From IMG/VR virus record IMGVR_UViG_2872698443_000003: a stretch of DNA of 20,548 nt; one strand, written 5' to 3'. The DNA comes from a virus. Lineage: Duplodnaviria > Heunggongvirae > Uroviricota > Caudoviricetes. The stretch's first letter is position 1; every line of letters begins with the position of its first letter. The notes below the pieces were generated by a model. It did not search any database and was not told where the DNA came from. It was given only the letters and a program-made list of their open reading frames with translations. A program made the position numbers and the translations under genes. Below are positions 367-7,256 of the stretch, in pieces.

Positions 367-1229
367 GCTTAGTCAGCCGTTGTCTCCGGGTGTCGCGTGC
401 GCAGTTGCACGTAATTCTCAGACGAACCGATGACTGGAAAGATGGTCGCCGCAGCCGTCACTCAGATGATACGGATGTGCTTCTCCGTATACACCATGTT
501 ATCGGAGAGCTGCCCACGTATGGTTATCGTCGGGTATGGGCGCTGCTTCGCAGACAGGCCGAACTTGATGGTATGCCTGCGATCAATGCCAAACGTGTTT
601 ACCGGATCATGCGCCAGAATGCGCTGTTGCTTGAGCGAAAAACCGCTGTACCGCCATCGAAACGGGCACATACTGGCAAAGTGGCCGTGAAAGAAAGCAA
701 TCAACGATGGTGCTCTGACGGGTTCGAGTTCCGCTGTGATAACGGAGAAAAACTGCGAGTCACGTTCGCGCTGGACTGCTGTGACCGTGAGGCACTGCAC
801 TGGGCAGTCACTACGGGCGGCTTCGACAGTGAAACAGTACAGGACGTCATGCTGGGAGCGGTGGAACGCCGCTTCGGCAACGAGCTTCCGGCGTCTCCAG
901 TAGAGTGGCTGACGGATAATGGTTCATGCTACCGGGCTAATGAAACACGGCAGTTTGCCCGGATATTGGGGCTTGAACCGAAGAACACGGCGGTGCGGAG
1001 TCCGGAGAGTAACGGCATAGCAGAGAGCTTCGTGAAAACGATAAAGCGTGACTACATCAGTATCATGCCTAAACCAGACGGGTTAACGGCAGCAAAGAAC
1101 CTTGCAGAGGCGTTCGAGCATTATAACGAATGGCATCCGCATAGTGCACTGGGTTATCGCTCGCCACGGGAATATCTGCGGCAGCAGGCCAGTAATGGGT
1201 TAAGTGATAACAGGTGTCTGGAAATATAG
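324..1229 (+). CDS. insD: IS2 transposase OrfB (InsD), 301 aa, -1 frame relative to insC; OrfAB fusion expected by programmed frameshift
   Basis: Track ORF 324..1229 with DDE-type integrase core; overlaps insC at AAAAAAG 318-324. Confidence 0.92.
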
Positions 1230-1240
1230 GGGCAAATCCA

Positions 1241-1744
1241 CTGCAACGTGCCGGAATCGATTTGGCGATCTACTTTGATGATGCGCCGTCAGCGCAACTC
1301 ACTCATCACTTTCTGATGGATGAAGAAATCCTGCCAGTATGTAGCCCGGAATACGCTCAAAGACATGCTTTAACCAACACGGTAATTAACCTGTGTCACT
1401 GTACGTTGCTCCATGACAGACAGGCATGGAGCAACGACTCCGGTACGGATGAATGGCATAGTTGGGCGCAACATTATGCGGTTAATTTGCCGACATCTTC
1501 TGGAATTGGCTTTGATCGTTCTGATTTAGCTGTTATTGCCGCGATGAATCATATTGGGGTGGCGATGGGAAGAAAACGCCTGGTACAAAAAAGGCTTGCC
1601 AGTGGTGAGCTCGTCGCGCCGTTTGGCGATATGACGGTGAAATGCCATCAGCATTATTACATCACCACATTACCGGGCAGGCAGTGGCCAAAAATTGAAG
1701 CGTTTATTACCTGGCTAAGAGAACAGGTAAAAACCACTTCATAA
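1241..1744 (+). pseudogene. LysR-family transcriptional regulator, C-terminal substrate-binding portion only (about 168 codons); 5' half replaced by IS2
   Basis: Track ORF 1214..1744 begins inside the IS2 right end, so its first codons are IS-derived; no HTH N-terminus. Position next to the torI/attR end matches the K-12 dsdC neighbourhood (synteny inference, not sequence recognition). Confidence 0.6.
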
Positions 1745-4514: not shown

Positions 4515-4811
4515 TCAGTCATTACTGATAGCGCCATAGCGTGAGCGGTAATTACGCAGGCGCGGGTCGATATATTCAGGGAAGTGGGTATATGTGGCTT
4601 TGCGGAATGGTCGGATTGATGTCTGGTAAATTCGCTCTCGTTCTTCTTTCTCTGCAAGCCATATACAGTGGCGAAATTCCTTTTCTTCTTTCGTTTCCTG
4701 CGGTAGCGACATTATCCGGTCGTAGTTTTTCCTGAATTTATCCAGCACCTCCGATACGGAATTGCCGGAACAGCGGCGCGCGTCGTCCGCACCATACAGA
4801 GGCGCTGGCAT
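4515..4811 (-). CDS. Hypothetical basic protein, 98 aa
   Basis: Track ORF; AGGAG 6 nt upstream of ATG 4811. Confidence 0.55.
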   Translation of the reverse strand: MPAPLYGADDARRCSGNSVSEVLDKFRKNYDRIMSLPQETKEEKEFRHCIWLAEKEERERIYQTSIRPFRKATYTHFPEYIDPRLRNYRSRYGAISND

Positions 4812-4824
4812 GATTTTCTCCTGA

Positions 4825-5340
4825 TTAAATTGCGTGAATAGCGTGACGAGGGAAGGGGAGGGTTACTGGCGCAAAAGGTATATCGTCGTCAAACTCCATA
4901 GGTGGTTCGCTGTGATTTACCTGCTTCTGAGGCTGCTGTTTTTGTTGCTGACCGTTATTTCGCTGAGGTGAAGACTGTTCATTGCTTCCTTGCTTGCCAC
5001 CAAGCATTTGCATGGTTCCACCAACGCCCACGATAACTTCGGTAGTGAACCGATCCTGTCCGCTTTGATCCTGCCATTTTCTTGTCCGCAATTTTCCTTC
5101 AAGATAAACCTCAGAGCCTTTTCGCAGATATTCGCTGGCAATTTCTGCCAGTTTCCCGCTCATTACCACACGGTGCCACTCCGTCTGCTCCTTTTGCTCT
5201 CCAGTTTGCTTATCACGCCATTGTTCTGACGTAGCAACTATAAGGTTTGCAAATGCCGTTCCTGATGGTGAATATCTGATTTCTGGATCATGCCCAAGGC
5301 GACCAATAATGATCACCTTATTTACGCCTCTACTTCCCAT
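4825..5340 (-). CDS. ssb: Phage single-stranded DNA-binding protein with a 15-residue extension after the canonical DDDIPF tail, 171 aa
   Basis: N-terminal OB-fold region closely matches E. coli SSB as recalled ([51 protein letters not shown]...[10 protein letters not shown]); C-terminus reads ...[24 protein letters not shown]. Confidence 0.88.
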
Positions 5341-6048
5341 TTATGCCGCCTGTTTTAGTTCGTTAACTCTGATGTTCATTACCTGAACGCATTTAGCCTG
5401 CGCATCCTCATTGCCAGCCATTAATTGCCAGTCATGCTGATAACGTTCTATGAGTTTTTTCTTGTCAGTTTCTGTTGATGCATAATCGCTGAAGTCTTTC
5501 AGGATTTGTTCGCAGTCAACCGATGGAGATTTCTGGTTGGTATTTTCTGGTGATGGTTTGTTATCTGATGCTGGGATTGCCCAGCCCGGCAGCGATGGAG
5601 GGAGCCAGTAAAATCCTGTTCCATCCTTCAGTTTTGCCCTGTGCCACCCCTGCTTTTTATCGGGAGATGTTTGTGCGAAACCTTCCTCAAGGTTATACAG
5701 ATACCGACCGATTCCCCACTGAACGGCAGCGCGCTTCATTGCACCGGAACGACCACCTTTGACGGCTTCTACCTGCGTGTTTTCAGCAGCATCCCATTTG
5801 GTTACCCATTCGGAATCAATCTTTATTGATATGCCGCATTCAACGCCGCCGTTGTTGGGAATATCGCGGTATTCATTGCGCCATCCTGCTTTGCCACAAA
5901 CATCGTCAAGGCGTTTCATGATTGCCCGGTTCGTAACATAAGCCAGCACCATAGCCCACACCTTGCCATCGCGTGTTTTACCGCTTTGCTGTATTCGCCA
6001 TTCGATATCTTCAGGGCAGAATGGCTCATCGAATTTGTTCAAATCCAT
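5341..6048 (-). CDS. Rad52/Sak-type single-strand annealing recombinase, 235 aa
   Basis: Track ORF directly upstream of and abutting ssb; motifs resembling the Rad52/22 family (recalled, not searched). Confidence 0.55.
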   Translation of the reverse strand: MDLNKFDEPFCPEDIEWRIQQSGKTRDGKVWAMVLAYVTNRAIMKRLDDVCGKAGWRNEYRDIPNNGGVECGISIKIDSEWVTKWDAAENTQVEAVKGGRSGAMKRAAVQWGIGRYLYNLEEGFAQTSPDKKQGWHRAKLKDGTGFYWLPPSLPGWAIPASDNKPSPENTNQKSPSVDCEQILKDFSDYASTETDKKKLIERYQHDWQLMAGNEDAQAKCVQVMNIRVNELKQAA

Positions 6049-6056
6049 AATTCACC

Positions 6057-6227
6057 TCAGAATGGACATGGCCCAAGGAAATAACGCTGGTTTAATACTT
6101 CGACTCGGGACAAATTAAGGCATACCCGCATTCCTTCGCGGTCACCATTATGGCGATACCAGAGAGCTTTTTGCGTGTACATGCGTCTCTGTAACTTGCT
6201 CTCCTTCACTGTGGTTGCAAGTGACAT
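6057..6227 (-). CDS. Small hypothetical ORF, 56 aa, strong SD (GGAGAT) but overlaps the 6148..6306 ORF out of frame
   Basis: Manual translation (MSLATTVKESKLQRRMYTQKALWYRHNGDREGMRVCLNLSRVEVLNQRYFLGPCPF). Confidence 0.3.
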   Translation of the reverse strand: MSLATTVKESKLQRRMYTQKALWYRHNGDREGMRVCLNLSRVEVLNQRYFLGPCPF

Positions 6228-6306
6228 GAATATCTCCTTCGTTACCGATTAATTCTTTCATCTGACGAATGAATTCTTCGTCTGACCAGTTATCTGTAAA
6301 ACTCAT
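6148..6306 (-). CDS. Small acidic hypothetical protein, 52 aa
   Basis: Manual translation; start ATG overlaps the upstream stop in ATGA at 6303-6306. Confidence 0.35.
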   Translation of the reverse strand: MSFTDNWSDEEFIRQMKELIGNEGDIHVTCNHSEGEQVTETHVHAKSSLVSP

Positions 6307-6455
6307 TTCCTGCGATACCACGGAATGTTGATCGCTGATTTCATCGCTTTATTTGCTTCAAGCCACATTTTGGAATCACCAATAAATCTGGCTATTACTG
6401 CTTTGTTCTGTGCAGCACGAAGCATCTGGTGATTAATGACTATTTCATTGCGCAT
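6303..6455 (-). CDS. Small hypothetical protein, 50 aa (MRNEIVINHQMLRAAQNKAVIARFIGDSKMWLEANKAMKSAINIPWYRRK)
   Basis: Manual translation; GGAGG 5 nt upstream of ATG 6455. Confidence 0.4.
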   Translation of the reverse strand: MRNEIVINHQMLRAAQNKAVIARFIGDSKMWLEANKAMKSAINIPWYRRK

Positions 6456-6574
6456 AACGCCTCCAGTTGTTTCTTTGCTGCTCTGATTAATTGTTTAACT
6501 CGGCGTGATAATTCAGATTCGTGCGGGTAGAAAGCGGACATGACGCCGCTACCCGCGAGCTGAAAGTGCATCAT
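6440..6574 (-). CDS. Small hypothetical protein, 44 aa from the internal ATG; the longer track ORF 6440..6679 would read through a terminator
   Basis: AAGGAG 7 nt upstream of ATG 6574; terminator 6641-6664 sits inside the longer track ORF. Confidence 0.4.
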   Translation of the reverse strand: MMHFQLAGSGVMSAFYPHESELSRRVKQLIRAAKKQLEALCAMK

Positions 6575-6640
6575 GGGTAACTCCTTATATTTGATTGCAT
6601 AACGAAAACGCCTCAAGTGAAGCGTTATTGGTATGCATAT

Positions 6641-6664
6641 AAAAAAGCCCCCACACTGGAGGGC
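6641..6664 (-). terminator. Rho-independent terminator on the minus strand
   Basis: Minus-strand RNA GCCCUCCAGUGUGGGGGC followed by UUUUUU. Confidence 0.55.
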
Positions 6665-6759
6665 AAAGAAGATTTCCAATAATCAGAACAAGTCGGCTCC
6701 TGTTTAGTTACGAGCGACATTGCTCCGTGTATTCACTCGTTGGAATGAATACACAGTGC

Positions 6760-6963
6760 TTATTCGCGAGCTTTGAGCATTGCGTCTGCAAACTTATATG
6801 CAGCGCTTGCTGCATAATTAACAGCTCCATCAGAATCATTATCGATAATCGATGGATTGCTAATCATTGCTTGCATAGCCTTTGCCGCGAAGTAATCACG
6901 TAATGTCGCATCACTTGCCATTTCTGGGCGTTTGATATCTGCTTCGTAAAACTCGCACATCAC
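6760..6963 (-). CDS. Hypothetical early protein, 67 aa
   Basis: Track ORF; start overlaps the upstream stop (ATGA at 6960-6963). Confidence 0.5.
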   Translation of the reverse strand: MMCEFYEADIKRPEMASDATLRDYFAAKAMQAMISNPSIIDNDSDGAVNYAASAAYKFADAMLKARE

Positions 6964-7256
6964 TCACCTCCCAGAGCCTTGATGATTGCTGCAAAACCTT
7001 TATTAACAGCTCCATACCATTCTGGATATGTTGTCGTTGTTCTATTTTTGGATTGCTTAAGTAATAACTGAAGTGCTTCGAGAAGGTCAGGTGCTGCCGC
7101 TATTAGATTGGCATCTTCAATGCATTGAACTTCCTCACAGATTGCAATATACGAACGCCAGCCTGCGCCATTTTCAAGAGAGTCTGCCTGGATGATTTTA
7201 ATCTCATCGCCATCCATCATTATTTCCCACTTACCTTCAGTACCTTTAAATTCCAT
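6960..7256 (-). CDS. Hypothetical early protein, 98 aa
   Basis: Track ORF in the leftward operon. Confidence 0.5.
   Translation of the reverse strand: MEFKGTEGKWEIMMDGDEIKIIQADSLENGAGWRSYIAICEEVQCIEDANLIAAAPDLLEALQLLLKQSKNRTTTTYPEWYGAVNKGFAAIIKALGGE

Follow-up and report, generated by a model that had tools for sequence, protein, structure and literature searches.

Locus organization

The window, a 20,548-nucleotide stretch of viral DNA (IMG/VR record IMGVR_UViG_2872698443_000003, class Caudoviricetes), carries four small open reading frames (ORFs) of 44 to 56 amino acids on its minus strand, between two terminators and a recombinase gene. The features, in the 5' to 3' direction of that strand, are as follows:

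6637..6664, minus strand: intrinsic terminator of the tL2A type, stem GCCCTCCAGTGTGGGGGC followed by a T-run (in the terminator scan, 6664-6647 plus the T-run)
6597..6626, minus strand: second intrinsic terminator, of the tL2B type, stem AACGCTTCACTTGAGGCGTT followed by a T-rich tail (in the scan, 6626-6607)
6574..6440, minus strand: 44-aa ORF, assigned to cIII; Shine-Dalgarno (SD) sequence AAGGAG at 6586-6581, ATG at 6574
6455..6303, minus strand: 50-aa ORF, assigned to kil; SD GGAGG at 6464-6460, 16-nt overlap with the 44-aa ORF
6306..6148, minus strand: ORF-B, 52 aa; its own ATG and the TGA of kil overlap as ATGA
6247..6294, minus strand: conserved core of ORF-B, codons 5-20, DNWSDEEFIRQMKELI, delimited by pN/pS and third-position excess
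6148..6227, minus strand: 80-nt out-of-frame overlap of the ORF-B tail with the N-terminal 27 codons of ORF-A
6227..6057, minus strand: ORF-A, 56 aa; SD GAAGGAG at 6240-6234, inside ORF-B
5341..6048, minus strand: Rad52/Rad22-family single-strand annealing protein, 235 aa (PF04098, E=5.6e-25)
4825..5340, minus strand: phage SSB, 171 aa (PF00436, E=1.4e-37)
4515..4811, minus strand: Abc2 anti-RecBCD protein (PF11043, E=4.1e-61)

An earlier note, made from the letters alone, had described four small ORFs with good ribosome-binding sites or ATGA coupling, lying between an internal terminator and a Rad52-like gene. All of this was borne out: the four ORFs are present on the minus strand where they had been placed, each has a strong SD or an ATGA, and the terminator scan and the PF04098 match agree with the described position, which is that of the small genes of a pL operon. 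Chance ORFs were ruled out, as all four match curated or phage protein families with E values from 2.6e-13 to 2.3e-41. HK75, Sf6 and HK620 have an annotated terminator at the position homologous to the tL2A-type site, HK75 and HK620 have a second one, and the pair goes by the names tL2A/tL2B in HK75, HK620 and Sf6; all four ORFs are downstream of both.

The neighboring genes identified by Pfam are cI, N, Ral, the Rad52/Rad22-family annealing protein, SSB and Abc2, and the gene order (N, ral, ..., terminator, cIII, kil, ..., recombinase) is that of pL. The locus is the pL operon of a lambdoid prophage with a recombination module of the 'HK75-type', a class comprising an anti-RecBCD protein, an SSB and an annealing protein, without a nuclease (PMC12315714). 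The C-terminal ~55 amino acids of the Rad52-like protein match P22 Erf (a P22-Erf-type C-terminal domain), and its ATG, at 6048, is preceded by the ORF-A stop at a distance of 8 nt. Positions 6040-6600 match a prophage of E. coli S163-2 at 100% identity, 1116 of 5426 complete E. coli genomes contain similar sequence, and positions 5341-6700 share 95-99% identity with phages ECP1, mEp235, mEpX2, HK75 and Sf6. The locus is in this sense ordinary, consisting of early-left-operon genes of a lambda-like E. coli prophage, and all four small genes are already annotated in close relatives: cIII and kil are textbook genes, and annotation of ORF-A and ORF-B dates back to the genome papers on HK97, HK620 and Sf6. 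A search of 6040-6320 for a structured RNA or riboswitch returned none (fold z=-0.21; Rfam gave only a sub-threshold miRNA match), and the search for an internal promoter gave a single 9/12 match, at 6300-6273, the region being poorer in such sites than shuffled sequence would predict.

cIII and kil

The 44-aa ORF matches Pfam PF08134 at E=2e-30 (104.7 bits against a gathering cut-off of 25) over all 37 profile positions, and also matches phrog_550; its homologues are annotated as CIII in mEp235, HK97 and Sf6 (gp32). Its score against PF02061, the lambda/P22-type Lambda_CIII family, is 12.4 bits and falls below the cut-off of 25.7. By these profile matches, the gene is cIII of the HK022/HK97 sequence type and not of the lambda type. 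The 50-aa ORF matches PF06301 (Lambda_Kil) at E=1.7e-20 (72.6 bits, cut-off 27.6) over the full 31-position profile and phrog_2055 at E=4.8e-35. Homologues are annotated as kil in mEp235, Sf6 (gp31), HK75 and HK97, and the PGAP label is 'host cell division inhibitory peptide Kil'. Within the pL operon the ORF is flanked by cIII and the recombination genes, and it is under strong purifying selection, with a nonsynonymous to synonymous polymorphism ratio of 0.20 among close relatives. On sequence and position, it is identified as kil.

Nothing material distinguishes this pair from known systems with a lambda-type Kil and an HK022/HK97-type CIII: the gene order (terminator, cIII, kil, recombination genes) is the same, and the 16-nt overlap of cIII and kil is identical in HK97, mEp235 and Sf6. 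The cIII product is presumed to inhibit the host FtsH protease, stabilizing CII, and the kil product is presumed to be a host cell-division (FtsZ) inhibitor that blocks assembly of the FtsZ ring. The statement in the earlier note that none of kil, cIII and gam is recognizable here holds for gam, which is absent, and fails for kil (PF06301) and cIII (PF08134), both of which score far above their cut-offs.

ORF-A

ORF-A matches phrog_1723 (E=9.4e-36, 56 of 58 profile positions) and is 100% identical to Sf6 gp29. HkaM of phage HK620 matches the same family (E=3.6e-33), and by this shared profile ORF-A is a member of the HK620 HkaM family. The two proteins are alike in length (56-62 aa), in a G-[DN] turn, in a C-terminus of the form ...F-[LI]-x(3-6)-PF, and in a stop codon 8 nt before the recombinase ATG, but their identity is only ~32%. 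They differ also in setting: hkaM is ATGA-coupled directly to kil and followed by Sak4 in HK620, whereas ORF-A starts inside ORF-B and is followed by the Rad52-like recombinase. Homologues at 62-100% identity keep the 56-aa length, and remoter members of 59-62 aa retain the same pattern. It is a small family, with 22 representatives at E<=0.001 in a set of 1.84 billion, and its C-terminus is Pro-Phe in 225 of 228 homologues, with P55 and F56 invariant in one alignment (A6).

AlphaFold2 modeled ORF-A as a two-helix hairpin (residues 7-26 and 30-51, pLDDT 92) with a non-helical C-terminal tail, and the protein is strongly basic, with a net charge read from the sequence of about +6 to +7. Comparison of the model with PDB folds gave generic helical hairpins only (best E=0.6), a profile search of PDB sequences found nothing, and Pfam and NCBIfam hold no family for either ORF-A or ORF-B. 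ORF-A was considered as a Kil paralogue, since a 'GD' turn and a helix hairpin are common to both, and this was rejected at an hhalign probability of 0.6%. A literature search for HkaM, gp42.1 or the PHROG identifiers returned nothing beyond PMC5928155.

ORF-A is under purifying selection as a coding sequence. Across diverged members pN/pS is 0.36 overall (Nei-Gojobori). Over the C-terminal 14 codons, the window and another locus, L085, differ by six synonymous and two conservative changes, and it is therefore the protein, rather than a translation-initiation region for the recombinase, that is conserved there. ORF-A also occurs without ORF-B. With an SD of its own, it follows a 70-nt non-coding gap (L085), an unrelated 331-aa gene (L086), a cIII-like gene directly (L087) or non-coding spacers (L105 and L106); elsewhere it is ATGA-coupled to an upstream gene, which is kil in HK620 and Huey and a 49-aa ORF in Erwinia phage Eho59.

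Linkage to recombination genes was scanned in loci fetched by similarity to the ORF-A family and not to recombinases (228 members, 55 distinct proteins). All 225 loci that include downstream sequence have a recombinase as the next gene, beginning 1-13 nt (usually 8 or 10 nt) after ORF-A. These are 75 Rad52-like proteins, 73 HK620-type Sak4 ATPases, 49 P22/HK97-type Erf proteins, 14 of a second ERF type, and 14 AAA_24 ATPases of 290 aa (types checked in Pfam), giving five types from three Pfam families. This is strong guilt by association with recombination, irrespective of the recombinase fold. Being an obligatory upstream neighbor of five recombinase types, ORF-A is a well-defined candidate accessory factor for phage recombination, and its family is a candidate accessory possibly for recombineering systems too; this linkage is one point of residual value in an otherwise ordinary locus. 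In HK620, sak4 and ssb by themselves were as active in oligonucleotide recombineering as the whole module with hkaM (PMC5928155), and HkaM is thus dispensable for that reaction; this only experimental datum argues against a role of the family in oligonucleotide annealing itself. The PHROG label 'recombinase' on phrog_1723 is implausible for a 56-aa hairpin and is misleading on both the ORF-A and the ORF-B families, which is also worth recording. As a separate observation, the recombinases behind ORF-A have three unrelated folds, and all of them face SSB-coated ssDNA.

ORF-B and the overlap

ORF-B belongs to phrog_2123 (E=2.3e-41), equals Sf6 gp30 and HK022 gp42, and is strongly acidic (net about -7, read from the sequence). 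Diverged homologues at 35-63% identity were found in Enterobacter phage vB_Ecl_MII_001, a Pseudocitrobacter prophage, Salmonella phage SPN9CC and several metagenomic contigs, and, among the loci compared, in L092, L100, L107, L108, L089 and others. Their start is always ATGA- or GTGA-coupled to, or abuts, the stop of an upstream gene (kil or a cIII-like gene), and they always read into ORF-A in a frame other than its own, with a constant offset between the two; any of the five recombinase types can follow the pair. The tail is variable, giving total lengths of 52 to 72 aa. AlphaFold2, given a shallow alignment, produced a poor model (pLDDT 60), in which residues 9-20 form a helix and the rest is of low confidence.

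The evidence for ORF-B is thinner, and conservation is confined to its N-terminal part, where the pattern is D-x-W-[STD]-[DE]-[DES]-x-[FW]-[IV]-R-x-M-x-[DEK]-[LIM]-[ILT]. In codons 5-20, pN/pS is 0.39-0.40 in the ORF's own frame vs 1.0-1.8 in the other two frames, and minimal changes are distributed over the three codon positions as 13:8:24 (P=0.0003, column shuffling) and, in a second set, 10:11:23 (P=0.003), an excess at third positions. This core is the only part of ORF-B under protein-level selection. Polymorphism among near-identical relatives comprises 2 synonymous and 10 non-synonymous changes (ratio ~1) and one natural nonsense allele. The 80 viral loci picked at 100% ORF-A identity were used only for polymorphism in ORF-B and kil, because that selection makes them unfit for comparing constraint between ORF-A and ORF-B.

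The overlap of 6057..6227 and 6148..6306 by about 80 nt in different frames, as the earlier note had it, is exact (6148-6227), with the frame of ORF-A at +1 relative to that of ORF-B. Within it, pN/pS is 0.30-0.33 in the ORF-A frame, and 0.17-0.27 in the unique part of ORF-A in the same loci. In the ORF-B frame it is 1.5-1.7, like a non-coding frame. ORF-A therefore dominates the shared stretch, and the ORF-B tail is without protein-level constraint and simply runs on into ORF-A. An open ORF-B frame inside ORF-A was discarded as evidence for ORF-B; it is uninformative, because the frame is also open, for 37-42 codons, in four of seven ORF-A genes that have no ORF-B. According to the earlier note, one at least of the two is probably spurious. 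Each shows coding-type selection in its unique part, and diverged phages with different recombinases preserve this out-of-frame overlap; both findings speak against that suggestion, and both members of the pair are apparently real genes as judged from these comparisons. Such a pair has residual value in its own right, as it is mostly uncalled by RefSeq PGAP in the genomes inspected (ORF-B in one of three, ORF-A in none of three).

A rather unlikely alternative is that only ORF-A is functional, the translation of ORF-B serving as a device that couples kil or cIII to the ORF-A start, or marking a conserved mosaic junction, and its peptide having no function. The unconstrained tail, the shallow polymorphism ratio of ~1 with a natural nonsense allele, and the chance opening of the frame in genes without ORF-B all fit this reading, as does the encoding of the ORF-A SD (GAAGGAG) by the 3' end of the core, where it is read as E-G. 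So does the distribution of the module. The same N-terminal segment of ORF-B (63 nt) borders very different downstream genes at the junctions seen in SEN22, HK140, Kapi1 and others (in SEN22 and HK140 as a 35-aa ORF overlapping a different gene upstream of ExoVIII or RecT), and many HkaM-type phages dispense with ORF-B, their kil being ATGA-coupled directly to hkaM. A pure coupler, however, needs no conserved amino-acid sequence, and the core has its low pN/pS, third-position excess and conservative replacements across homologues that are 44-63% identical. The geometry is also poor for termination-reinitiation, with the ORF-B stop 80 nt past the ORF-A start. The most fitting description of ORF-B is a genuine small gene with an acidic helix of ~20 residues as its functional part.

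The two ORFs could also be one gene, in which programmed +1 frameshifting within the overlap gives an 82-aa B-A fusion in some ribosomes; we regard this as extremely improbable. The frame relation is exactly +1, an A5 run here (GCAAAAAGC) would permit +1 slippage of tRNA-Lys, and natural fusions exist. In HK97, the same DNA segment with the same kil-ATGA start carries a 1-nt difference that joins the N-terminus of ORF-B in frame to the C-terminal two thirds of ORF-A, giving the 83-aa gp42.1; gp42 is an internal start in the gp42.1 frame, and the separate 56-aa ORF-A is disrupted. Several 81-82-aa fusions with differing junctions are also in the databases. The fusions are nevertheless rare, each known from 1-4 member sequences where the separate ORFs have hundreds, and their junctions are scattered, as sporadic 1-nt deletions or errors in sequencing would make them. 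Conservation is lacking for the A5 run, the sole slippery run in the window: most relatives have GCAGAAAGC, which gives E46. No stimulatory RNA structure was found (the fold z of -0.21 applies here also, and Rfam gave none), and ORF-A has its own start, with SD and ATG conserved, and in many phages is found without ORF-B. The rare B-A fusions are what single-nucleotide deletions anywhere in the 80-nt stop-free overlap would give.

ORF-B can be compared with P22 Arf, a protein that aids recombination and is not essential (PMC12315714). In P22 the gene order is kil, arf, erf, and ORF-B occupies the same slot (kil, small acidic ORF, recombinase module). The sizes are similar (47 aa for Arf, 52 for ORF-B), and close to the N-terminus both Arf (MQHEFSDEEFIALISPEIEEEVEQQ...) and ORF-B carry the motif [FW]-S-D-E-E-F-I, after which comes an acidic stretch. 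ORF-B has no counterpart to the conserved C-terminal half of Arf (QQINLAAERQNP..WDEFAGYYS), and Arf overlaps erf by ATGA, whereas ORF-B overlaps ORF-A by 80 nt. One database source names a 90%-identical relative of ORF-B 'accessory recombination function protein'. Five of seven ORF-B variants match the Arf family phrog_2445 weakly and in the same register, through no more than the N-terminal 22-24 residues (the window protein at E=0.045, diverged homologues at 0.0008-0.04); hhalign gave a probability of 19% (P=0.0012), and the Pfam Arf family (PF17585) had no ORF-B match at E<=1. ORF-B is possibly Arf-like, in position, size, charge and one short motif; the similarity is not significant and homology is not established.

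Possible roles in recombination

The reading that we consider probable is that four real, translationally linked small genes follow tL2, namely cIII, kil, ORF-B and ORF-A, and that the last two are accessories of recombination. ORF-B would supply a small acidic peptide whose selected part is the N-terminal helix of ~20 residues (DNWSDEEFIRQMKELI), and ORF-A a basic hairpin of two helices whose ...Pro-Phe C-terminus is free and flexible, from a gene joined at 8 nt to the recombinase gene. As accessories in the sense of P22 Arf, a role suggested by linkage only, the two would act on something common to all recombinases, for example SSB-coated single-stranded DNA or a host factor. Because they are found with unrelated recombinases, they probably act on such a shared target and not on one recombinase fold.

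It is very unlikely that ORF-A and ORF-B are instead unrecognized replacements for Gam, inhibiting RecBCD or another host nuclease. They do sit in the recombination module, are small and charged (ORF-A basic, ORF-B acidic), and ORF-A accompanies any recombinase type, as a factor aimed at the host would. But abc2 is already in the operon, as it is in Sf6, mEp235, HK75, HK97 and HK620, and neither ORF has any likeness in sequence or fold to Gam, Abc2 or other known inhibitors; searches of Pfam, PHROGs and NCBIfam gave no similarity to Gam among the four ORFs. RecBCD inhibition in this operon comes from the P22-type Abc2 (4515..4811), a functional analogue of lambda Gam, and not from these ORFs.

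For the preferred accessory role, one specific mechanism can be offered as a long shot. The ORF-A/HkaM family might be a mimic or competitor of the C-terminal tip of SSB, with the acidic core of ORF-B or Arf as a second piece. The ...x-Pro-Phe-COOH end of ORF-A resembles those of E. coli SSB (...DDDIPF) and HK620 SSB (...NDYPPF), a resemblance only, and the acidic cores read DFDDEEFI in the Arf-family consensus and WSDEEFI in ORF-B. Phage recombinases depend on the C-terminal tip of SSB (PMC5928155; 10.1101/2020.04.14.041095), and the last six residues of HK620 SSB are required for Sak4 loading (PMC5928155). If this were true, ORF-A and ORF-B would work as a pair of accessories independent of the recombinase, gating access to SSB-coated DNA or blocking host enzymes that interact with SSB, and the same mechanism would extend to P22 Arf as well.

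ORF-B (52 aa) and ORF-A (56 aa), the small overlapping genes upstream of the Rad52-like recombinase, are joined in frame in some relatives. Two features of relatives are considered here:

L110 (the HK97 locus), 1205..1456, HK97 gp42.1, an in-frame fusion of ORF-B and ORF-A
L090 (SEN22) and L091 (HK140), 1301..1408, a 35-aa ORF corresponding to the ORF-B N-terminal module (MSFTDNWSDEEFIRQM...)

The N-terminus of HK97 gp42.1 derives from ORF-B and is joined in frame to the C-terminal part of ORF-A as a result of a 1-nt difference inside the ORF-B/ORF-A overlap, and the separate ORF-A reading frame is broken in HK97, a viable phage. Fusions of 81-82 aa with other junctions are present, though rare, in metagenomic and genome data (proteins P0001, P0005, P0021, P0023, P0024, P0027, P0031, and P0069). 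In some ORF-B alleles of Salmonella and E. coli (P0036 and P0053), in-frame tandem duplication within the conserved ORF-B core (homologous to 6247..6294 of the window) gives two or three copies of a 7-codon unit (EFIRQMK). In SEN22 and HK140 the 35-aa ORF follows a cIII-like gene with ATGA coupling, and its overlap of 23 nt is with a 103-aa gene located before ExoVIII or RecT; the N-terminal module of ORF-B is therefore independent of ORF-A.

Several existing labels for genes of this region are misleading. PHROGs names both phrog_1723 (ORF-A) and phrog_2123 (ORF-B) "recombinase", which is implausible for proteins of 52-56 aa, and this label has propagated to RefSeq phage records. In the GenBank record of ECP1, "cIII protein" is the label on the ORF-A region, and the true cIII appears as a "hypothetical protein" in PGAP annotation.

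Elsewhere in the window lie four further features:

6760..6963, minus strand, small gene, 67 aa, phrog_2201 (function unknown)
6960..7256, minus strand, small gene, 98 aa, phrog_1273 (function unknown)
5341..5505, minus strand, Rad52-like protein, C-terminal ~55 aa, matching P22 Erf
4825..5340, minus strand, phage SSB with an extended C-terminus, from comparison with relatives

The two small genes lie between ral and the terminators, and a Pfam search with their products found no family match, the only matches being to PHROGs. From sequence comparison, the recombinase gene contains a mosaic joint: its C-terminal domain (EQILKDFSDYASTETDKKKLIERYQHDWQL...NELKQAA) is near-verbatim in P22 Erf, whereas the ERF-family annealing domain of Erf is unrelated to the Rad52-family domain of the window. 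The SSB has the canonical tip (...MEFDDDIPF) followed by 15 extra residues, an extension common to mEp235, HK75, and the relative loci L085, L086, and L108. Because the ssb product of Sf6 ends at ...DIPF, with gp26 as the next gene, and given the C-terminal end of gp26 (14 residues) as compared with the extension, the window-type ssb looks like an in-frame deletion joining ssb to the final codons of a gp26-like gene. Such a fusion would bury the normally free IPF terminus of SSB.
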